The position numbers and the translations under genes were made by a program. A stretch of DNA of 13,233 bases from Azolla caroliniana (taxonomy: Eukaryota; Plantae; Polypodiophyta). Below are positions 131-13,233 of the stretch, in pieces. Position 1 is the stretch's first letter. Each line of letters opens with the position of its first letter. Below the pieces are notes generated by a model. The model did no database searches, was not told the DNA's origin, and saw only the letters and a program-made list of their open reading frames with translations. The DNA is taken from assembly GCA_043228905.1 (NCBI GenBank), contig JBHGNT010000979.1, positions 1 to 13,233 on the forward strand. Direction: 5' to 3'.

Positions 131-508
131 TGACAGGAACACACGCTCCTGATGAACAACGCTCGGCCACAACCGAGCTTAGAATCAAAACACAGAAAAA
201 AAAACGGGAATGAATGCACGACACAATGGAGAGAAGAGAACACAAGATGTTAACGTGGAAAAACCCAAACTAGGGAAAAAACCACGACAGCCCACAGACT
301 ACAAACTATCACTATGTCAAAATGTACAAATGGTAAAGCACCGAAGCAACGACCTCGAGCTTTCTATCTTCGCCACAGGCGGCGGTTACAACAGAGGCAA
401 CAACCTCTTCCTCTCTCTCACTCTCTCTGTACACAGTTGCGCGCTCTAATCTTGCGCCAACAAGAATGACAACAACTCTCAACCAATGACTAAGTTTGCC
501 CTAAGTCA

Positions 509-516
509 TATTTATA
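509..516 (-). promoter_or_regulatory. Putative TATA box of the copia LTR
   Basis: TATAAATA on the minus strand in mid-LTR, overlapping a 10-bp inverted repeat (503-512 / 519-528). Confidence 0.5.
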
Positions 517-640
517 CTAATATGACTTTTCGGCTATTTACAAATATAGCCCCGATGGACTCTCAGAAAACATATTTACGAATATGTCTCTTCATCCGGT
601 GAGCACTTCTCACCGGGCCTTCACCATCCAACTCTTGCCA

Positions 641-724
641 GGTACTCGTCATCTGGTTCTCACCGGGTCTTCCGTAGCTGGGTACTCCTCATCTGGTTCT
701 CACCGGGTCTTCCGTAGCCGGGTA
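641..724. repeat. 40-bp tandem duplication in the copia U3 region
   Basis: 641-680 and 681-720 differ at 2 positions (GGTACTCsTCATCTGGTTCTCACCGGGTCTTCCGTAGCyG). A partial copy lies at 607-621. Confidence 0.9.
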
Positions 725-812
725 GTCCACATTCGGTTTCAGCCTCGGCCGAGTTTACTCATCAGTACTGTTCTTCTCACTTCCCATCCGGAGGGACCTG
801 TTTCCGAACAAA

Positions 813-826
813 CTCCCCCTTCACTC
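813..826 (-). other. Copia polypurine tract (PPT)
   Basis: GAGTGAAGGGGGAG on the minus strand, 2 nt before the TG of the 3' LTR, overlapping the pol stop codon. Confidence 0.9.
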
Positions 827-3800
827 CGGCATGGGATGTCTTACTAGTCCGATCTGCTTTCGGCATGCATCCAACTTGTCGGGTATCAGTACTTTGGTCA
901 GCATATCTGACCCGTTCTCAGCCGTGTGGATCTTCGTTAACACGAACTTCTGGTCATCTACTCTTTCCCGGATCCAATGATACCTTCGCTGGATATGCTT
1001 CGTCCAGGAATGGTAGGCCGCATTCTTAGCAAGGTGGATGGCACTTTGATTGTCGCAATAGAGTCGATATTCATCTTGCCGGATACCGAGCTCTCCGATG
1101 AAGTCCTTCATCCATAATATTTCCTTGCCGGCTTCCACAGCCGCCATGTACTCCGCGCCTTCGTGGTTGACAGCGCAACCGTCTTCTGCAGCCTCGACTG
1201 CCACGAAACACCTCCCCCTGCATATGTCATTACATACCCGAATGTAGACCGGCTAGTATCCACATCAGCCGACATGTTTGAATCGGTAAAACCGTCAAGT
1301 TGAGGTTTTCCGGAGCCGAATCGAAGACACATATTTGAAGTGCCCTTCAAGTACCGGAGTATCCATTTGACCGTGTTCCAGTGCTCCTTGCCGGGATTGC
1401 TCATAAACCGGCTCACCACTCCGACTGCGTATCCTATATCCGGTCGGGTACACACCATTGCATACATTAAGCTCCCGATGGCAGAGGCATATGGAACCTT
1501 CATCATATCCACCTTCTCTGCTTTTGTCTTCGGTCTTTGCTTACCGGATAACCTGCAGTTTGCCGGAAATGTCGATCCGACCGGTTTCGCATCTGACATG
1601 TTGAACCGCTGAAGCACCTTTGTCATGTATTTCTCCTGTGACAGCCACAATTGCTTCGTTGGCCGGTTCCGGATGATATGCATCCCCAACATCTGTCTTG
1701 CCGGACCCAAGTCTTTCATCGCAAAGGTTCGGTTGAGAGCCTTCTTCAGCATCCGTATTTTGGCTTGGTCCCGTCCGACGATCAACATGTCGTCCACGTA
1801 TAGAAGGAGTATCAGGAAGTCGCCTCCTTCGAACTTCTTCACAAACACACAGTGATCAGCCTGTGTCTTGTGGTACCCTTGATCGGTCATAAGGAGTCGA
1901 ACTTCCGGTACCATTGTCGGGGAGCCTGCTTCAGTCCGTACAGGCTCTTCTTCAACCGAAAAACCAAGCGCTCCTTCCCTTTCTCCACGAATCCTTCCGG
2001 TTGCTGCATGCAGATCTCCTCTTCGAGGTCACCGTGAAGGAATGACGTCTTCACGTCTAACTGCTCTACCTCGAGGTCCATGCTTGCCGCTATACTCAGC
2101 ACCGTCCGGATGGAGGTCATCTTTACTACCGGGGTTCATTATCTTCTTCTCCGACTCCCAGTCGGTGAGTGTCTTGTCCTCCATGAAGATAATATCTCGA
2201 CTCCGGAATACCTTCTTGTCGACCAGGTCCCACACTCGGTAGCCGAACTCATCGTCGCCGTAACCGAGGAATATGCATGGCCGGGTCTTCGGATCTAGTT
2301 TTCCTCTCCGGTCCTTAGCTACATGCACATACGCAAGACACCCGAATACCTTCAGATGCCGGTAGGATACTTCCTTACCGATCCATACTCTCTGTGGCGT
2401 GTCTCCGTCCAAGGGTACTGAGGGTGATATGTTTATCACATATGTCGCCGTTGACATTTCCTCTGCCCAAAACTTCTTGGGTAGTTTTGCATGCGCCATC
2501 ATACTCCGGACCCTCTCCATTATGCTCCAGTTCATCCTCTCGGCCAGCCTGTTTAGTTCCGGCGTCTTCGGCACGGTAAATTTGAGCCGGATTCCCTTCG
2601 AGCGACAATACTGCTCGAACTGCCCCCGGTATTTCACCTCCGTTATCTGCTCGAACCGCCTTCAGCTTCCGGCCAGTTTCTCTTTCCACTCTCGCGTGGA
2701 GCTCTTTGAAGACGGATAGCACCTGATCATTCTTCTTCAACGGTGTGGCCCACAACTTCCGGCTGTGGTCATCTATGAACGTCACGAAGTACTGTGATCC
2801 TGCATGTGACTTCGTGTCCACTTGACACACATCAGTATGCACCAACTCCAGTGGTGCATTACGTCTCATCGGTGGCCTTGGTCGGAAGGAGGTCTGGTTT
2901 TGCTTACCGACCAGACAATTAGTGCACTTCTCTAAGTGCACGTTCTTCACTGAAATGAGGTTGTCGTCTGCAAGCCTCTTCATCCCCTTCTCGCTCATGT
3001 GACATAGCCTTTTGTGCCACAGCTCACCGGCAGTGTCAGATGCCACATTCACTTCCTCCGGACATAACCGGGCATTCATCAGGTACAACATGTTTACCTT
3101 CCGGGCCCGAGCCACAATCAGGCTCCCTTTGCTGAACTTCATAACACCGTTCCGGATGCTACCCGTGTAGCCTTCATCATCTAGCCAACCGACTGATATC
3201 AGGTTCAGACGAACCTCCGGAACGTGTCAGACATCCTTCAGCAGCATCTTGCATCCGGTTGGTGTTGTCAGCCACACGTCTCCTATGCCGACAATTCGGC
3301 ATGTACCTTCATTCCCCATCCGGACAAAGCCGTGATCACCGGCTGAGTAGGATGAGAAGCATTTCCAATCCGGGGTAAGGTGGAACAACGCTCCGGAGTC
3401 GACCACCCAGGTCATCTCGTCACCGGCAAGGTTTATCTCACTCTCCTTGGTGATGAGCATCAACTCTTCTTCACTTGCCGCAATTGTCGTCGTTCCCTTC
3501 CGGTTCGGCCCCCTCCGGTCTTTACTATTTCGGTCCGATGTCTGCTTGGAATCGGTACCGTCGGTTTCCTTGTCTTTTTGGAAATGCCGACAGTTCTTCT
3601 AGAAGTGTCCCGGCTTGCCGCAATAGAAGCAAGTAGGTCTCCCCCTTGACTTTGACCGTATCCCTGACTTTTCCCGGTTTTGGGGACTATGGTTCCTTTG
3701 TCTTCCGCGTTCCAATTCGGTAAGGAGCGCTTTGGAGTCGGAGCTCGTATCCTTATCTTTCCGACGCGCCTCCTCATCTAGCAAGCTCGACTTCACTCTT

Positions 3801-4325
3801 GCTAGGGATAACCGTTTCCCTTCCGGCCCGGCGTTGCCCAAGGTGACAACCAACGTCTCCCAGCTATCTGGGAGGGAACCGAGCAGGAGTAGTGCTAGTA
3901 CCTCATTGGCAAGAGGTACTTCCAATGATGTTGCCTGGTGGATCAGCCCCTGGAAGGCATTCATGTGCTCCGCCATGCTGGAGCCATCTTGGTACCGGAG
4001 TCTTACTAGCTTCCGGAATACCGAAACCTGATTAACAACATTTTTGTTTTAAAACATAATGTCGATCTTCTCCAAGAGCTCATGAGCCTTGCTCTCTTCA
4101 TTGAAGTTGTTGTATAGACTCATGTCGATGAAACACCGTATGTACGCCGTTGTCTTTATGTGCATCACTTCCCATATCGTGGCATCGATTTTGTCCGGTC
4201 TCTTGTCCCCGAACTAAAACCGGCAACCAAAGATCTTTAACCACGAGCATGTCTCTCATCTTCGACTTCCACACCGAATAGTTGGAGCCGGTGAGCTTGA
4301 ACATGCCTCCCAACGAATCATCCAT
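821..4325 (-). pseudogene. Copia gag-pol polyprotein, disrupted by frameshifts, stops and an internal deletion
   Basis: Gag N-terminus KLTGSNYSVWKSKM. Zinc knuckle CFYCGKPGHF*KNC (TAG 3599-3601). Protease WVVDSGA (DSGA 3389-3400). TGA at 3227-3229. Integrase LWHKRLCH..CTNC, HTDVC, RADNGGE, AERMN. RT YVDD (1789-1800). RNase H GFTDS.., CDNQSAI, TKHI. The fragments are spread over several frames. Confidence 0.95.
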
Positions 4326-4340
4326 TTTCTGTGTCGTTTC

Positions 4341-4352
4341 GCTCTAATACCA
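4341..4352 (-). other. Copia primer-binding site (tRNA-iMet type)
   Basis: TGGTATTAGAGC, 3 nt after the LTR-terminal CA. One mismatch to the canonical plant TGGTATCAGAGC. Confidence 0.92.
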
Positions 4353-4355
4353 CTT

Positions 4356-4529
4356 TGACAGGAACACACGCTCCTGATGAACAACGCTCGGCCACAACCG
4401 AGCTTAGAATCAAAACAGAAAAAAAAACGGGAATGAATGCACGGCATAATGGAGAGAAGAGAACACAAGATGTTAACGTGGAAAAACCCAAACTAGGGAA
4501 AAAACCACGGCAGCCCACAGACTACAAAC
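4356..4529 (-). repeat. Copia 5' LTR remnant (3' 174 bp only)
   Basis: Matches 131-306, and similarity ends abruptly after ACTACAAAC (4529). Confidence 0.92.
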
Positions 4530-4887
4530 AACACGTTCGCGTTCACAAGTGGAAGGATCGCGCATAAATGGAAGCATAAGGGAAATTTTAGGGGTTTTTC
4601 AATGATTTTACAAAACACATTGATACCAGTATCATACAAGTTCAAACATACTATGAAAAAGGTTAAAAATCCACTATTTTCGTGATTTAGAAGTAACTAA
4701 AAAAAGACGAATTTCAAAAACATACATTCTCAATTTATATCACAAACTTTACAACCAATGTTATTTTATAAGAAACGATTTTTGGGAAATCATAAGAATT
4801 CAAAACACATGATTTTATATTACTCGATTTGTTACAAGCGGAATGTAGTTACACTTAATAGCCAAATATACATTCATGATCACTCCT

Positions 4888-7668
4888 TTACGGAGAATCA
4901 CTACTATAACTAATATACAATGACGATTCCTCCTCATCATCCTCGGATGTACCAATCAGTGCATTATCTTCGTCATAAACCAAATGGTTTGACTCTAGAT
5001 TATATGTAGCAGATCTCGTTTGCCTTTGACTCGAGCCACCTTGTAGACCTGGTAATTTTTCTTTTATTATATCTATTGTTGACTTCCTTAATCGTCCGGC
5101 TTTTGTAAGTGTGAAGTCGTACACGATGATATCCACATCAGAGATATCAAGGGTCGAGGTGTTACGAATGTTTCGCTTCCTCTTCCTACCTCCCCTTCTT
5201 GTTTGGCATTCAATCATCTCCAATGTATACTTACCTGTAAAAGCATTTGCACTTCTAGTGTTGTACCAATGAACATTTATAGACTTGATCGTGTTTTCTA
5301 TTTCATGCATTAGCACTTCTAGAATTTTACCAACCCAAAATTGGTGGCCATGTGAGTTCTCATCAGCCGGCGTTGCAATCAACATCCCCGCGGTGAGCTC
5401 TTGCAAATTTCCTTGCCATCTAGCTTCAGCTGCTTTGGTCATCCTTGGTCCCACATAAATGTCTCTTTGTTGTGGATGGACCAAGCTGTCATTAATCGCA
5501 TTTACTAGTCGCTCCGGACTTCTATTTACGCGATCATGTTGCAGCGACCATGTGAATGGCGTTTCCAAATTCCAATTATCAACAGATACACAATTGTCTA
5601 TAATTTCTTTCTGATCACTATAAAATACATCCCACCATGACGTGTCTTGTTGTGCGGCATATTTCTTGGCGGCCTCAATATGCTTTCTTTTTTCTTCTAA
5701 GGCTTGGAGCCATGACCGTTTTTGTTCTGATACCAAGTCGCTCTGCAACTGTCCTTTCTTCTCAATTGGCATTTGCTTAGCTCCATGGACAATTGTACTC
5801 GGCATACAAAGTAATAACTGGCAACCACCTTCAGGTTCCCATGTTGTAGAAGATGAATATTGTTTAGCATACAAAACTGTAGAACCACTTATTCCATTTT
5901 TCTTTATCAAAAAAATGTGATTGAAACTTATATTGTTTAACTGAGCAAGCACTTTAACATTCCCACCACCCCCATCTAATATATATCTCTTAAAGTCATA
6001 TACCTCCTTCAAGTGTAACACTTTTGGGCGTGGTGTATATGCATCACAAATGACATCAAATAGTTTAGGTAAAGTGAAAGCATCATGCCGAGACAACTGT
6101 CTGGAGAATGTGCTAAACATCTGATCTATATGGTCATGTGTGTGGCCAACCAAAAGGAAATTGACTTTCACTTTCCTAAACAATTCTAGGTTGACCAACA
6201 TACTTAGATAGCCAAATACAGTTGAATTTTTGTTCTCTCTAGCAGTATTGTCCAATTGAATGTATAGAACAGGGGGGAAAGGTTGTCCCCAAGACATCAA
6301 AACTCGGTGAATCACTGTAACTGTTAGGTTAGGGTCATTGTGAACATTGGGGTAAGTAATGAAGACGTGAGGTCGAACAGACCTATTATAAGCCAAGCAT
6401 CCCACCAAGTGCATTTGAACAAGGCACTCATCATTGACATCTTTGGGGAGCCTCCGCATATGCGGCAAGCATGTCTTCTTCTGGTCCATGCCATCTATCA
6501 TTAAGCACATGTATTGTTCAGGCCTCTTCAAACACTTCTCTCTATGATGCATCGCCTTCCTTCGTTCTAAGGATTGTGCCTCACGATGCTCTTGTAGTAA
6601 CTTCTTACTCGTATCCTTTTCCATTGATGTCTTTGCACCTTTAGCCAAACTTTTAAGATTTGCACAAATGGAGCAATACCCCATACGTACTTTACGAGGA
6701 ATAATAACATTTGAAAACTGAGCTCTCCATAATCTTGTGAATTGGCTATAGGTGATAGACTTATTACGTGAGCCCAGCATTTCAGATCGATAGACATCAT
6801 AAACTTCCCGACGGGTATAATTATCAGAAAGATGCATCCTACCCGTAGTGGGCATTACTTCACAATTTAACTGAAAGTAAGTTTTCATCCAGCCAATAGC
6901 TAGTCTTCCAATTGCACCTTTCATACTTGGAACCTCTTTACAATTGAGCATCTGATCCCCGCTAAGTAGACGTTGTTGTACTCTATGTAGCCGCATGTTA
7001 CTAACACATAACGCAATTTTGAATGCAACTCTACATATCTGTTGCGCATGGAAGATATAATACTCGAATGATACTTTGATCCCCGTACATTTGTTAGATA
7101 CTAGTTGCATATGTGATCCGAGGTAAGTGTCTTGCTCATCACCGGTCATCGAAAAATAGTATCGCCTTAATTCTCGCAACTTTGATTTTCCAATCATAGA
7201 CATACAACCACGGGCACACCATATTTTGTTGACATCAAATCCAATCTGTTTATCTGATGTCACCAAGCTAAATCTAGCCAGACGAATTCTTCGTGGGATT
7301 CTTCTAATATGCATAGGGCTCCCAGATTTCTCTTCCTGCATAGAGGTTGGTGTAACCTTGTTACAGTCTAATTCTCTGTTCTGACCATCGCCAATGTTAT
7401 TCAATGTTTCCTAGGCACTTCCTTCATTCTCGGTATCTTTATTAATATCGTATTCTTCAATAGAGAACTCTTCACATGTGTCATTATTTACATTCCCTGT
7501 AGATGAGCTCAGACAATATTCTTCGATAGAATATGGTGAGTCGGTCGAAAGACAATATTCTTCAATCGAATATGGTGACTCTGTTGACAAACAATACTCT
7601 TCAGTAGAAAACGATGGGTCTGATGACAAACAATATTCTTCAATCGAGAACGGTGAATCTTCACTCAT
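4888..7668 (-). pseudogene. Sola1-like (DUF7869-type) DDD transposase, 926 codons with one in-frame TAG at 7411-7413
   Basis: ORFs 7411-7668 and 4888-7404 share a frame (the latter's start is TTG). Motifs: ICRVAFKIALCVSxxR; CSIC (6664-6675) followed by His; IDGMDQKKT (D 6493-6495); YIQLDNTARENKN (D 6250-6252); FLLVGHTHDHIDQMFS (D 6124-6126); basic NLS-like RRGGRKRKR; acidic tail. Family assigned from remembered motifs. Confidence 0.75.
7510..7665 (-). repeat. 4 x 39-bp coding tandem repeat (13-aa acidic unit, S.(D/E)SP(F/Y)SIEEYCL)
   Basis: SEDSPFSIEEYCL / SSDPSFSTEEYCL / STESPYSIEEYCL / STDSPYSIEEYCL, plus a partial FSIEEY at 7450-7467. Confidence 0.9.
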
Positions 7669-7941
7669 GGCTTAAGGTCTAGAAAGGGCTCTCTAAGTTA
7701 TACTCCTCTCTAACCATATACTCCTCCCTAAACATAAACTTCTCTCTAAACAAGAGCCAAATCAATAGAATGTCTATATTATGTAATATTCTATTAATAC
7801 AATACATCTAAAAACTATTTTTAATAAAGTAATTTAACTTAAATTATCAATCATTATATAAACTAGATCTAAATGATGTTAAATCAAGTAAAATATAAAA
7901 CTAATCATTAACAAGCCTTGAATATGTTGGATTAATGTTAA

Positions 7942-8127
7942 AATCATTGGCTAATTAATGACACCCATTTTGATATAGAACGTCTCACTCATTGGTTCTT
8001 TAATGCTCACCATTTTAAATATTAGACTTATCAATCATTGGTTAATTCATGCCCACATCTTTAATACATAACATTTGAGAGTCATAAAAATTGTTGCTTT
8101 TAGTAATCAATCATTGGTACATTCATG
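7942..8127. promoter_or_regulatory. Degenerate ~45-bp repeats, each with an inverted CCAAT box, between the divergent genes
   Basis: TCATTGG-N5-T(A/C)ATG units with ATTGG at 7946, 7991, 8037 and 8113. A further ATTGG is at 8295. Confidence 0.55.
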
Positions 8128-8339
8128 AACCTCTATCATTGTCTCCTTCATAACCTTTGAAGTGATTGTAGGTTGTTATGACTATAAAAGATTGATCAAT
8201 ATGTTAGTTTGACTTTGTAATCATTAATACAATCATAAGTTACTCTAGTTAATGTGACTATGGTTACCAACTAACTATACTCAAAGTTACCAACATTGGT
8301 TAAGGTGACTATGGTTACTTTAACCATGGGTTCAATCCC

Positions 8340-8347
8340 TATAAATA
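8340..8347 (+). promoter_or_regulatory. TATA box of the plus-strand spliced gene
   Basis: TATAAATA about 25-30 nt before an initiator-like TCACTCA and 151 nt before the ATG at 8491. Confidence 0.6.
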
Positions 8348-8373
8348 GGAAGACCTCATCATATTTCACTCAC

Positions 8374-8457
8374 CAGAGCGTACAGAGCGTACAGAGCACA
8401 CAGAACGCAGAGAGCACACAGAGCACACAAAGCACTCAGAGCACAAAGCACGAAAGC
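8374..8457 (+). repeat. 9-bp minisatellite (CAGAGCACA-like) in the putative 5' UTR
   Basis: cagagcgta x2, cagagcaca, cagaacgca, gagagcaca, cagagcaca, caaagcact, then shorter units. Confidence 0.85.
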
Positions 8458-8490
8458 GCGATCTCCGCCTCCACTTCAACACGATCAACC

Positions 8491-8525
8491 ATGTCTTCAA
8501 AGAGAATCGAGCGCGAGGACTCCAG
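8491..8525 (+). CDS. Exon 1 of an unknown spliced gene (MSSKRIEREDS-R)
   Basis: ATG in AACCATG context downstream of a TATA box. Donor AG|GTAGGC at 8525/8526, phase 2. Confidence 0.6.
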
Positions 8526-8575
8526 GTAGGCCTCTGACACTGTGGACATTTTTGTAAATATGTTTCGTTTCTCAA

Positions 8576-9166
8576 GAACTCGATACGGTGTATCGAGTTC
8601 ATGTATACAATACAAATATTTAAACACGAACTCGATACGCCGTATCGAGTTCGTGTATAAATATTTGTATTGTATACATGAACTCGATACGGCGTATCGA
8701 GTTCATGTTTAAAGTGTAGGTTTTAAACACAAACTCGATACGCCGTATCGAGTTCGTGTTTAAAGTGTAGGTTTTAAACACGAACTCGATACGGCGTATC
8801 GAGTTCGTGTATAAATATTTGTATTGTATACACGAACTCGATACGCCGTATCGAGTTCGTGTATAAATATTTGTATTGTATACACGAACTCGATACGCCG
8901 TATCGAGTTCGTGTATAAATATTTGTATTGTATACACGAACTCGATACGCCATATCGAGTTCGTGTTTAAAGTGTAGGTTTTAAACACGAACTCGATACG
9001 CCGTATCGAGTTCGTGTTTAAAGTGTAGGTTTTAAACACGAACTCGATACGCCGTATCGAGTTCGTGTTTAAAACCTACACTTTAAACATGAACTCGATA
9101 CGGCGTATCGAGTTCCGGTTTAAAGTGTAGGTTTTAAACACGAACTCGATACGCCGTATCGAGTCC
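8576..9166. repeat. Array of 12 palindromes (ACACGAACTCGATACG-C/G-CGTATCGAGTTCGTGT) with two spacer types in both orientations
   Basis: 25-bp cores start at 8576, 8628, 8680, 8731, 8782, 8834, 8886, 8938, 8989, 9040, 9091, 9142. Spacer A = ATAAATATTTGTATTGTAT (19 bp), B = TTAAAGTGTAGGTTTTAA (18 bp). Order A',A,B,B,A,A,A,B,B,B',B (' = reverse complement). Confidence 0.97.
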
Positions 9167-9589
9167 CTGTATATAAGAAGGCTTTGAGAGAGAAAAATCG
9201 TTTATGGGGTGGAAATGATATCAAATTGTCTGGCAAAATCAGTCTTTTTTATGTTGACTTTACTTACTTTTAAAGAAATACATGCTCTAATTATAGGTGT
9301 TTTATGACCTACTTTAGCTTAATAAAGTAGAAAATGATCTACAAATTGCCTTCACTATGGCAAATTCTCCTCAATATAGGTTTAGAATCTATATAAGTCA
9401 TACCTACTATTTAAAAGAATATATAACCCGTTTTACTTATTACGATATATATTTTCTAGGTTGAATAGCCCTGCCTATAATAGATTTTTGAATATGTTAC
9501 TGCTCCTGGAAACTGTTCTTCATTATAATATACAACTTCAATCTACGTGACTGTCTAACTTATGTTTTTGCATATACTTTCTTAAATAG

Positions 9590-9827
9590 GTCGTTTGAGA
9601 ACCTGTCGGACCGACCCGTGAAGAAAATTAAGCTTCGCATACAAGGTTCTCCAATCGAAGCCCAGACCAAGGTAACTCCTGAGACCATGAAGAGAGGAAA
9701 AAAGCTTCTCTTTAACGAAGAGACAAAATCTCAGCCACATAGTGAAGTTAGCCAAAAGAAACTTGTCGCCGTTACTGGAGGCGAAGACCTTCCTGACCGA
9801 GATCTAACGGACAAGGAATTGTCATAA
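9590..9827 (+). CDS. Exon 2 of the unknown spliced gene (NLS-like PVKKIKL), truncated by the gypsy LTR
   Basis: Branch-point CTAAC 9555-9559, T-rich tract, acceptor TAG|G at 9589/9590. AG+G makes Arg, then the frame continues SFENLSDRP into the 9618-9827 ORF. The stop codon lies within the LTR. Confidence 0.6.
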
Positions 9828-9890
9828 CTAGACTCGAACCCATAACCTTTTGTTACACGGGTCGAGACTTTACCATTAGGTTATGAGTTG
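9820..9890 (-). other. tRNA-like module with Pol III A/B-box motifs at the LTR edge (not a functional tRNA)
   Basis: Minus strand CAACTCA-TA-ACCTAATGGTAAAGT-...-AGGTT-ATGGGTTCGAGTCTAGT-TATGACA: 71 nt with tRNA-like spacing. Anticodon and acceptor stems pair poorly. Confidence 0.55.
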
Positions 9891-9942
9891 TAATTTGAAG
9901 GATATTATTTTCATTTAGGTTTTATTAGGAAATTGATGTATA

Positions 9943-9990
9943 TTCCAGATTTCTCTGGAACATTCTAGAAACTTCAGGAGTATTCCTGAA
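9943..9990 (+). promoter_or_regulatory. Heat-shock element array
   Basis: TTCcaGATttCTCtgGAAcaTTCtaGAAacTTCagGAGtaTTCctGAA: 10 in-phase alternating nGAAn/nTTCn units, 7 perfect, ending 5 nt before the TATA box. Confidence 0.8.
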
Positions 9991-9995
9991 GACAC

Positions 9996-10002
9996 TATAA
10001 AA
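9996..10002 (+). promoter_or_regulatory. Gypsy LTR TATA box
   Basis: TATAAAA, 33 nt upstream of the self-primer sequence at 10029. Confidence 0.75.
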
Positions 10003-10109
10003 GGAGGCGCAAGGCATTAGTTCGAACCAAATCGGTTCAACGCCAGTCTTAAGCCTTCTAACTACTGTTGTATATCTTCCGTCATATAATACATATATCT
10101 TTCGCATCA

Positions 10110-10113
<4 letters not shown>

Positions 10114-10167
<54 letters not shown>
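10114..10167. repeat. (TC)27 microsatellite inside the gypsy LTR
   Basis: Uninterrupted TC run. Confidence 0.97.
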
Positions 10168-10171
<4 letters not shown>

Positions 10172-10306
10172 ACTCATTCCTTCTCTCAAAGTTCGACACC
10201 TCTCATAGTACTAATCCTTCTCTGTCTTAGTACTATTCCCCAACAATAGTACTAATCCTTCTTTTAGTACTAATTCCTTCTCTGCCTTAATAGAGTTCCT
10301 GACAGT

Positions 10307-10318
10307 TTGAACCGATTT
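10307..10318 (+). other. Self-priming primer-binding site
   Basis: TTGAACCGATTT is the exact reverse complement of AAATCGGTTCAA at 10029-10040. No TGG-type tRNA PBS is present. Confidence 0.8.
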
Positions 10319-10394
10319 TCCTCCTACTAGTCTCCCTCTTCCTTCTGTCTCTCTCCTTTCCTACTAGTCTCTTATTTCCCTTTTCCTTCATCCC

Positions 10395-11551
10395 ATGGCC
10401 ACCGTTAGCGCTGAAGAGTATCAATCCGTTTTCTCGGAATTTCAATGCTTGAAAGAGAAGTTTCATGCTTTGGAACAAGAAAATCAACGCTTGTTGGGGG
10501 ATCTTCAGCAAATTTCCTTAGAAAAGCAGCAAACGCAACAACAGCATGGGGAACTTGCGTTACGCGTGCAACAACTCGAAGCAACCATCGTAGCAATGCA
10601 ACAACAAGGGCACGGAGCACAAGGGATTCATAAAGAACCCAAGATTGGCCTTCCCACGAAGTTCGATGGAACGCGATCGCAGTTTAGAGGGTTTCTTAAC
10701 CAGGTACGGTTAGTTATTCAAATGCATCCGTCCCGATATCCCACCGATGCATCACGAGTGGGTTTAGTAGGCACGTTGTTAACTGGCTCAGCATTAGCAT
10801 GGTTCGCACCGCTACTAGAAAAGGAATCTCCAGTACTAAATAATTTTGAAGAATTCATAAGTGAGTTTAAAGCATGTTTTGGAGATACTGACAGCATAAG
10901 GACTGCAATCAACAAAATCCGGCGATTACGCCAAGGTGACCGTCCAGCCTCCGCATATGCTGCAGATTTCCGCCTACTCGCCGCCGATATCCCCTGGGAT
11001 GATCAAGCATTGATGGAGCAGTTCCGCTATGGTCTACGCAACGATGTCAAGGATTTACTCTTGACTTTCCCTGAAGAGCCAAAATCATTAACAGAAGCAA
11101 TCAGTCGAGCGGTCAGATGTGACAACCGCCTCTTCGAGCGACGTTCGGAACGACAATTTCAGATGCCGAGGGCAAGATCCGAGCCTACCTATGCCTCAAT
11201 GGTAGCGAAACCTTTTCAAAGGGAGTCACATAATGCGCCTCCAGTAAGTACTCCAACTCCAATGGAAATTGACACTACACGTCGTCGTGGGCCGCTATCG
11301 GAGGAGGAAAAGCAACGACGCCGAACAAACCGATTATGCCTTTAGGGCATATCGCGATAAACTGTCCCCATAGACCAAGAAGGCAGGTAAACCAAGTCAT
11401 TGTTAGTTCTGACTATACTAAACCCGAGTCTATGTCAGTAGGAATCTCTGATAATCCTCATAGTCATAATAGTCCTAATAGTACTAATAGTCCGAATCTC
11501 GCAAACAAATTTGATGTCCTTAGCCAATTAGAAGAAGAGTTAAACGACTAA
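10395..11551 (+). pseudogene. gag: Gypsy gag, with a frameshifting deletion in the zinc knuckle
   Basis: Coiled-coil N-terminus, capsid region (LRQG..ASAYAADFR..W.DQAL..QFRYGL..DVKD) and PMEID motif. The knuckle is split into RLCL* (TAG 11343-11345) and GHIAINCP in another frame that ends at 11551. Confidence 0.9.
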
Positions 11552-13233
11552 GTCCAGCCAAAATAGGAGCCGTTTGGTTGGACAGCCCTAGATCTGTGCA
11601 GCCCATTAGTGGTTCCATTCCCTCTAAGCAAGTTAGTGATGTGTTCGTAGTCCAAGTAGCAGTTAGTACTAAAAGTACCCCTCCAGTACATACCTTAGCC
11701 CTTCTAGATTCCGGAGCTAATTCTTGCTTCATGGATAGGAATTTTGCCCGAGCTCATCAGATATCTCTAAGAAAGCTCCCATGTCCAGCCTCAGTAGTAG
11801 TCATTGATGGTCGTCCCATTGCTTCTGGTAATATCATAGAAGAGTCGGAACCCGTTAATATTGTCCTAGATAACTTAACATGTGTAGTATCATTTAATAT
11901 TATTAGTATTCCAGAACATCCCATAGTTTTAGGATTACCATGGTTCGAGTTACATGACCCAGACATAGATTGGAGGACAAGGGAAATCCGGTTGCGACAA
12001 ACCCAAGGATCTACCCAGAAGGTTGCAACCATTTCGCTACGTCAGTTGCGTGAGGAAGGGCGCAAGGAGGAAATGTTTCTCTTTGCAATATCAGTACAAC
12101 CCTCCAGCACCACCAAAGAGGAGTCCACCGTTCAACTTCCCGAGAAGTATCGTCAGTATGCTGATGTGTTCGATAAAGTACAAGCCAACACACTTCCTCA
12201 TCATCGGCCGTACGACTGCGCCATCGACTTACAACCGGGAAAAGAGCCGCCATGGGGGCCGATCTACAATTTGTCACCAACCGAGCTAGAAGTCCTTCGA
12301 GCCTATATAGAGGAGAATTTGGAGAATGGTTTCATTCGGCATTCGAAATCTCCAGCCGGCGCACCCATTTTCTTCGTCAAGAAAAAAGATGGCTCGCTTC
12401 GACTCGTTGTAGATTACCGTGGCTTGAATAAGGTCACAGTAAGAAATAGGTATGCTCTTCCCCTTATCTCAAGTCTTTTAGAACGGATCAACGGTGCCAG
12501 GTTCTTCACGAAGATCGACTTACGAGGAGCCTATAACCTCGTACGGATCCGACCAGGAGATGAATGGAAGACCACGTTTCGCACCAGATATGGGCACTTC
12601 GAGTATACGGTCATGCCGTTCGGACTCACTAATGCGCCGGCAGTCTTCCAGCACATGGCGAATGATATATTTCGAGACCTCTTGGATGATTTTTTGATCA
12701 TCTATTTGGATGATCTACTGGTTTATTCAAAGACCCAAGAAGAACATGATTCTCATGTACTATTAGTACTAAAACGACTTCGAGAACATGGTCTGTATGC
12801 AAAGTTAGAGAAATGTAGTTTCGGGTGCAACCAAGTGGAGTTTCTCGGCTATGTCATCTCCTCAGAAGGCATATCTATGGACCCAGCCAAGGTCAAAACG
12901 GTGATAGAATGGCACACTCCGCGTTCGGTGCGGGATGTGCAATGCTTCCTAGGCTTTGCAAATTTCTACCGGAAGTTCATACAAAATTACTCAAAAATTG
13001 TGCTGCCTCTCACACAGCTCACCAGGAAGGGACAATCATTCATTTGGTCTAAAGAGACGGACATGGCTTTCGAGAGTCTTAAGAAGGCGTTTACATCAGC
13101 TCCAATTTTAGGTCATGTGGATCCGGAAAAACCATTCATTATCGAAGCTGATGCATCGGATTTCGCATTGGGGAGCATTCTGTCACAACAGGGTAACGAC
13201 GAGAAGCTACATCCTGTGGCTTTCCACTCCCGT
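11524..13233 (+). CDS. pol: Gypsy pol (protease, RT, start of RNase H), open to the window end
   Basis: Frame read by hand with no stop after TAG 11521-11523: LLDSGA (11701-11718), VLGLPWF, LPHHRPYDC, FVKKKDGSLRLVVDYRGLN, MPFGLTNAP, YLDD (12703-12714), FLGFANFYRKFI, EADASDFALG. Missing from the ORF track, probably because it has no stop in the window. Confidence 0.96.
11539..11590 (+). promoter_or_regulatory. Putative -1 programmed ribosomal frameshift signal
   Basis: G_TTA_AAC (11539-11545) in the gag frame inside the gag/pol overlap, then a 6-nt spacer and an 11-bp stem GTCCAGCCAAA / TTTGGTTGGAC (11552-11562 / 11573-11583). Confidence 0.75.

Follow-up and report, generated by a model that had tools for sequence, protein, structure and literature searches.

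The DNA analysed here (the window) is a stretch of 13,233 nt from the fern Azolla caroliniana (assembly GCA_043228905.1, contig JBHGNT010000979.1), and consists of three nested elements: a degenerate Copia retrotransposon, a Sola1-like DNA transposon that begins at position 4530 and a Gypsy retrotransposon that begins at 9820. The Sola1-like transposon carries a transposase gene, a divergently oriented accessory gene and an array of palindromes in the predicted first intron of the latter, and these parts form one mobile element bounded by terminal inverted repeats (TIRs). The window copy is dead, with a stop codon in the transposase and the accessory gene cut by Gypsy. In its relatives, the accessory gene is predicted to encode a ParB-like protein fused to a methyltransferase, and we give about even chances to a function in which a dimer of this protein binds the intronic palindromes and methylates its own element, likely keeping the divergent promoter active.

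Relatives of the transposase were surveyed in 79 metagenome loci that encode them (numbered with the prefix L). The parts of the Sola1-like element in the window are the following:

4530..4565, strand not applicable: TIR, one element end, begins AACAC (homology break and match to L012)
4888..7668, minus strand: pseudogenised Sola1-like DDD transposase (translation, PF25273, conserved aspartates)
7510..7660, minus strand: 39-bp coding repeats (EEYCLS), low-complexity N-terminus of the transposase (same repeats in P0002-P0004)
7669..8490, strand not applicable: putative divergent promoter region, 822 bp (five ATTGG/CCAAT sites, TATAAATA, CAGAGCACA repeats)
8491..8525, plus strand: predicted exon 1 of the accessory gene, 35 nt, MSSKRIEREDS, phase-2 donor (matching short exon in relatives)
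8573..9173, strand not applicable: intronic array of 12 palindromic sites (AACTCGATAC-N3-GTATCGAGTT), spacing 51-52 bp (pattern count, related arrays)
9590..9819, plus strand: predicted start of exon 2, Gypsy-cut (identity to L003, L006, L012 and L013)

The left boundary is exact at base 4530, where the DNA similarity to 16 matching right-terminus loci stops; the flanks of these loci are unrelated, one pair excepted. The 36-bp TIR found at this point agrees in 35 of 36 bases with the inverted copy at the opposite end of L012, and the original prediction, which saw no termini, was wrong in this respect. Both TIRs are present in five related loci of 6.0-8.6 kb, namely L012 (about 8.6 kb, with a right end 9 bp short where the contig stops), L018 (7.8 kb), L023 (7.7 kb), L035 (7.6 kb) and L041 (6.0 kb), with TIRs of 34-37 bp all starting AACA. 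A 4-bp target-site duplication (TSD), AACA, was found at L023, one of the four loci with both flanks, and not at L018, L035 or L041. The TSD is unsettled because the short-read assemblies collapse copies of multi-copy repeats, and flanks are possibly mixed. Searches for the empty sites of L018, L035 and L041 gave no informative match, and the far junction and TSD of the window copy were not found in sequence runs X1 and X2. Two internal deletions were also observed, one in the two-TIR element L041 (177-6220), where it takes the promoter, the array and the first third of the accessory gene, and another in L073.

Linkage was assessed in 17 loci whose sequence extends at least 3 kb upstream of the match to the transposase. 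The accessory gene was present in all 14 loci with a transposase identity of at least 54%, and 12 of these had at least one palindrome. Within this close clade, none of the three outcomes that would have refuted the original prediction was borne out, these being transposase copies that lack the divergent gene and array, an array that is an independent satellite or miniature inverted-repeat element (MITE), and a plus-strand gene that is a single-copy host gene. The linkage, the TIR at 4530 and the two-TIR relatives bear out the proposal of a single mobile unit. The transposase and accessory trees (14 rows) show three identical deep clades, the shallower accessory forks being open. In the liverwort Riccia, accessory homologues adjoin DUF7869 transposases at R1sor_010796/010795 and 022317/022315, as judged from locus-tag numbers only.

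The plus-strand gene had been proposed to be spliced, and the prediction from GT-AG sites and conservation agrees. A GT donor after 8525 and an AG acceptor before 9590 keep the frame and give a KK-rich peptide, the exon is conserved, and a matching short exon 1 is present in L003, L004, L006, L009, L011-L015 and L016. No splice joints were found in sequence runs X1-X3, which has no bearing on expression. Exon 2 of the window is 65% identical to L003 and 40-42% identical to L006, L012 and L013, and in these loci the frame runs on into ParB-like and methyltransferase exons. The gene had been taken to end at 9819; it is actually cut by the Gypsy long terminal repeat (LTR) from 9820, and the window copy retains the first 88 of about 975 accessory codons. 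In L012, six predicted GT-AG exons give an open frame of 975 aa. The accessory half in the window (9590-9819) diverges faster from L003 than the transposase (DNA identity of 65-69% vs. 87%; proportion of synonymous differences, pS, of 0.72 vs. 0.27), in a short, poorly ordered stretch.

The plus-strand gene had been labelled by a nuclear localisation signal and set beside VANC, the accessory protein of VANDAL elements; Pfam matches and structure models point to a ParB-methyltransferase fusion, and not to a small protein with such a signal or to a VANC homologue. The methyltransferase domain is absent from the window copy and was assessed in relatives. PF01555 (N6_N4_Mtase) exceeded its cut-off of 26.7 bits in the three loci scanned (L012, 42.1; L018, 32.8; L035, 38.1), and reached 65.7 bits in the Ginkgo homologue P0130. 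In the L012 model, DIPY at residue 692 precedes DLFSGTG at 852, which is the beta order of motif IV before motif I; DIPY is kept in 10/10 loci where the motif was found and DLFSGTG in 6. The ParB and methyltransferase exons have a nonsynonymous divergence (dN) of 0.03-0.43 with a saturated or high synonymous divergence (dS), which indicates purifying selection on both at the sequence level. Pfam scans of the transposase and 11 accessory-gene frames matched DUF7869 and PF01555, with no match to a Mutator-like transposase or to the VANC domains DUF1985 and DUF287.

A search with exon 2 in 1.84 billion representatives gave 480 matches at E ≤ 0.001. Ten long matches were looked up, of which seven were named (three from Chara, three from Riccia and one from Ginkgo), and PF01555 was above the cut-off in 6 of the 25 homologues scanned. 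Longer fused homologues were sought and not found, which is weak evidence. One annotated Chara protein of 1825 aa (P0124) contains two ParB-methyltransferase units, which the annotation may have joined from neighbouring or nested elements.

Structure searches with the predicted proteins gave ParB-like and beta-class methyltransferase folds. The L012 exon 2 model, with a predicted local distance difference test score (pLDDT) of 75.6, matched ParB and Noc in Foldseek (E 5e-5), and aligned in VIA with PadC (Z 9.7, root-mean-square deviation (rmsd) 3.0, 98 residues), pNOB8 ParB (Z 8.5, rmsd 4.2, 209 residues) and the DNA-binding domain of KorB (Z 5.2, rmsd 4.0, 103 residues); the matches extend over the DNA-binding domains of ParB-type proteins. 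The model of the full-length homologue P0138 (pLDDT 78.5) matched CcrM in Foldseek at E 9e-12 (VIA Z 22.6, rmsd 3.0, 216 aligned residues) and beta-class enzymes generally at Z 19-23. PDB sequence searches gave only MboIIA and RsrI, at E 0.3, with the methyltransferase exon, and nothing useful with exon 2. The L012 protein also has a predicted N-terminal beta domain (L012:4880-4330, model residues 68-182) with pLDDT above 90; it has only middling PH/SANTA-like matches (Z up to 5.7) and was not seen in the aligned Chara homologues.

The ParB part is predicted to form a homodimer. The two-copy model scored 0.56, with 0.06 for the best control, and runs shared at least 42% of contacts at a pLDDT of at least 75. 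In calibration, 21 of 30 solved homodimers and none of 23 monomers attained the homodimer mark; for eukaryotic proteins the figures were 17/29 and 0/30, respectively. Only 1 of 7 eukaryotic homodimers that lack an older solved relative attained it, and the score may stem from resemblance to ParB dimers already solved. The arginine of Box II was found to be required for nucleotide binding in one study of ParB proteins (PMC12704722). Box II reads GGSHS in the fern copies, and the arginine was found in 0 of 29 Box II-like motifs in the homologues, under a pattern that constrained neighbouring positions and a register set by eye against the sulfiredoxin motif. Since this arginine is apparently missing, static cooperative binding is likelier than a CTP-driven sliding clamp, and the latter model was lowered.

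The count of 12 CpG-rich palindromes in the intron was confirmed. They lie within 8580-9162, where 0.02 are expected by chance and none of 200 shuffles reached 12, and the observed/expected CpG of the array is 2.8. Related arrays occur in 27 loci, and with the window they define the unit AAnYCGATRC-N3-GYATCGRnTT, with symmetric arms, a free 3-bp centre and AA/TT flanks that are conserved outside the search pattern. The half-sites follow the clade (AACTCGATAC, AATTCGATAC, AAGTCGATGC or AATCCGATGC), the arms change symmetrically between units, and every unit forms a perfect inverted repeat. In loci with a recognisable counterpart of the short exon 1, the array sits between exons 1 and 2, and its unit length and number differ between families. 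Among 172 spacings, 155 do not exceed 65 bp; 154 of them take values of 31-34, 40-43, 50-54 or 62-64 bp. The spacings are near whole helical turns (31, 41, 51 bp), with phase zero at a period of 10.25-10.5 bp.

The transposase is probably Sola1-like, a label that we take from sequence motifs and the match to a description from the brown alga Ectocarpus, not from comparison with a Repbase reference. Its minus-strand frame (7668-4888) had been read as 926 codons; it is not open, as an in-frame TAG at codon 86 (7413-7411) splits it into 85 and 840 codons. Close relatives are open across 912-932 aa, and the intact ones share 86-90% identity with the window copy; dN is 0.05 and dS 0.33-0.38 between the window copy and L003 and L004. 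The only Pfam match is PF25273 (DUF7869, E 1e-51). Among 31 homologues, D309 and D429 are invariant and D306 and D387 nearly so, and either D306 or D309 may be the catalytic residue. The conserved D306/D309, D387 and D429 are consistent with the DDD triad of Sola transposases (PMC10741241, as excerpted). Among named proteins, the closest transposases are those of Ceratopteris (54%) and Adiantum, which makes a fern host likely, and PDB sequence searches with the transposase and with alignment A1 gave nothing useful. Distant transposases (L048, L049, L068 and L078, 34-47% identity) have long acidic tandem-repeat N-termini that parallel the EEYCLS repeats. A conserved C-terminal beta-rich domain (FWxGK...VHWY, window 5056-5448) had no Pfam or PDB profile match, and a chromatin-reader fold is possible for it.

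As the original prediction had it (about 820 bp), the transposase frame and the plus-strand ATG at 8491 lie head-to-head, with 822 bp between them. The TATA-type TATAAATA is present at 8340, upstream of the plus-strand gene, and 9-bp CAGAGCACA repeats span 8374-8445. The repeated CCAAT boxes proposed for this spacer are there as five ATTGG sites on the plus strand (1.9 expected, p = 0.037). As a family feature they were rejected, with a similar cluster in only one of the seven relatives checked (L003).

Two retrotransposons flank the element in the window:

131..4529, minus strand: degenerate Copia LTR retrotransposon, in whose LTR the element is inserted (LTR copies, gag-pol fragments)
9820..13233, plus strand: Gypsy LTR retrotransposon, inserted in exon 2 (LTR, gag, pol)

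The Copia LTR copies are at 131-306 and 4356-4529, and other copies of this LTR run on past 4529 with the insert absent, as seen at joints in the sequence runs. The Gypsy LTR spans about 9820-10304 (TGTCA...TGACA). In sequence run X1, the contig depth was far higher over both retrotransposon LTR regions than over the Sola1-like element.

In the proposed function, the predicted ParB-type dimer of intact relatives would dock on the palindromes in the first intron of its own gene, dimers would pack cooperatively along one helix face of the phased array, the methyltransferase domain would mark nearby DNA of its own element, and the mark would keep the divergent promoter active despite host silencing. 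These steps differ in strength. Binding of the array by the accessory protein is probable, and methylation in cis is slightly favoured. The D-x-P-Y motif favours N6-adenine methylation, and N6-adenine is somewhat likelier than N4-cytosine as the modified base. Anti-silencing as the purpose of methylation is tentative. The window copy itself is incapable of these functions, and retains one TIR and a near-perfect array.

Several observations weigh against this function. L058, L062 and L068 (35-40% transposase identity, with 4-10 kb upstream) have neither the accessory gene nor the motif, so that the two genes do not always go together. Only one palindrome is present in L033 and in L035, and none in L031 and L041. 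The transposases of L022 and L031 are 99% identical and their accessory proteins only 73%, which may be due to a module swap or an assembly chimera; over all rows, the identities of the two proteins correlate modestly (Spearman 0.46), in part because coverage is unequal. The helical phasing, which a draw test on distinct values supports (p = 0.0002 with the 16 values ≤65 bp, p = 0.018 with all 29), draws on spacings of related, tandemly amplified arrays; these are not independent, and the p-values are generous. The transposase region is mildly depleted in CpG (0.69) and CHG (0.73), which is in keeping with ordinary host methylation rather than lasting protection. Finally, the folded methyltransferase model is that of the homologue P0138 and not of a fern protein, and N6A and N4C enzymes match it with scores only a few Z units apart, so that the fold does not tell the modified base. 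As a separate observation, the accessory gene of L031 (230-3485) is inverted, on the transposase strand, and palindrome-free.

Other explanations were considered. Unlikely overall, though the best placed, is a KorB-like autoregulator on the intronic array, acting as a dosage brake on the divergent promoter with methylation as a binding switch or as repressive. It would fit an array 90-670 bp downstream of the accessory ATG, beside the shared promoter, and structural matches that include KorB and Noc, KorB being described as a long-range repressor (PMC11790492, as excerpted); however, full methyltransferase motifs under purifying selection go beyond the needs of a repressor, and the element family is multi-copy and diverse.

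The array could also serve the transposase or fold as a cruciform or RNA hairpins, with the ParB-methyltransferase acting elsewhere (ends, intermediates, host loci or RNA), which is improbable. Perfect inverted repeats with a 3-nt loop and symmetric arm changes fit a hairpin too, and METTL3-type RNA enzymes share the methyltransferase fold at lower scores (Z about 13). However, near-whole-turn spacing suits protein binding to double-stranded DNA, and the predicted recognition helix is nearly invariant, as is the CGAT core of the palindrome. The original prediction had left the binder of the array between the accessory protein and the transposase; the former is favoured, and the latter is the weaker candidate since the palindromes do not resemble the TIRs of any clade.

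There is a slight chance that the methyltransferase is catalytically dead and the protein only a binder or scaffold, a role proposed for the methyltransferase domains of DIRS1 elements (PMC4738411, as excerpted), which serve as a precedent. Motif IV is DIPY and not the canonical DPPY, and DFPC or DIPH stands in its place in several copies from Chara and Ginkgo, but every fern-clade copy in which they can be seen retains the motif IV residues D, P and Y and the FSGTG loop for S-adenosylmethionine. Captured host cargo next to an unrelated satellite or MITE, to which the lack of both gene and motif in L058, L062 and L068 would correspond, is largely refuted by the fixed position inside the TIRs across families with saturated dS, the congruent deep clades and the many divergent Chara copies.

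The system is not undescribed, as had been claimed; the published systems are compared here from excerpts of their papers. Sola1-1_Ec32 of Ectocarpus is described as a Sola1 element with an opposite-strand gene for a 1104-aa protein with ParB-like and N4C/N6A methyltransferase parts, and self-modification was proposed (PMC12477816). Both systems pair a Sola1 transposase with an opposite-strand ParB-methyltransferase gene (975 aa here) and have termini starting AAC (AACCG there, AACAC here). They differ in host and size: a brown alga, 21.5 kb and 282-bp TIRs there, and a land plant, 7.6-8.6 kb and TIRs of about 36 bp here. The excerpted description does not mention a palindrome array, and the likeness is by description, not by protein sequence comparison.

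In Bostrychia and further red algae, the Plavaka genes PAG2/PAG3 include a ParB-like PAG3 that adjoins tandem inverted repeats (bioRxiv 10.1101/2025.02.11.637652). This cassette likewise combines a ParB-like protein, inverted-repeat arrays and a PF01555 methylase, with binding and modification of its own element proposed. It differs in its EnSpm/Plavaka transposase and in the ParB-2-oxoglutarate (2OG) oxygenase and methylase-SET fusions on separate genes; helical phasing is not mentioned in the excerpts. In VANDAL elements, VANC targets multiply as tandem repeats, often in the intron of the VANC gene (PMC5735166), which resembles the present accessory gene with candidate target motifs amplified in non-coding tandem repeats, including the accessory intron. 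In contrast, VANDALs have a Mutator-like transposase, VANC (DUF1985, DUF287) causes loss of 5-methylcytosine (5mC), and its motifs are short and non-palindromic.

Fusions of ParB with N6_N4_Mtase (PF01555) are common in phages (PMC12704722, as excerpted). The accessory protein resembles ParB-parS, Noc-NBS and KorB-OB in having a helical DNA-binding domain after the ParB fold, a predicted dimer and a palindromic candidate site, and differs from the bacterial and phage proteins in that the Box II arginine is apparently replaced, ParA is lacking and the gene is a spliced one in a eukaryotic transposon. A beta-class amino-methyltransferase fold in a eukaryote is also found in the bdelloid N4CMT (structure 8s9n) and in Marchantia MpDN4MT1. 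The latter is a host gene with TSPPY responsible for genome-wide N4-methylcytosine (4mC) in sperm (bioRxiv 10.1101/2021.02.12.428880), whereas the accessory protein has DIPY and a ParB part and is transposon-borne. Many Sola elements are reported in a fern genome paper, whose excerpts leave the accessory gene unmentioned (PMC6786969). No description of the gene pair in land plants or of helical phasing was found in open-access full text, a scope outside which lie the Repbase moss Sola1 entries and preprint supplements. The design is a land-plant variant of a gene pair published for algae in 2025, with homologues in a fern, a liverwort and Ginkgo and with a defined, phased candidate site.

In its fullest form, the proposal is of a phage-derived ParB-methyltransferase without a CTP switch that would assemble cooperatively on a phased parS-like intronic array, would write N6-methyladenine (6mA) or 4mC over its own element against host 5mC silencing and would have been kept with the transposase from charophytes, by way of liverworts and ferns, to gymnosperms; as a whole, this is rather doubtful. 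VANC is given as the only tested case of a transposon binding and modifying its own sequence (bioRxiv 10.1101/2025.02.11.637652, as excerpted). It removes a mark, while self-writing of a bacterial-type mark has so far been proposed for algae. The present family offers a predicted protein that is intact, a candidate site of exactly 23 bp, several families with differing half-sites and a spacing rule. The presence of 6mA and 4mC in land plants is disputed, and the family names places where either would be expected if real. If the proposal is true, this self-addressed epigenetic writer would supply plant genomes with DNA methylation other than 5mC that is targeted by sequence.

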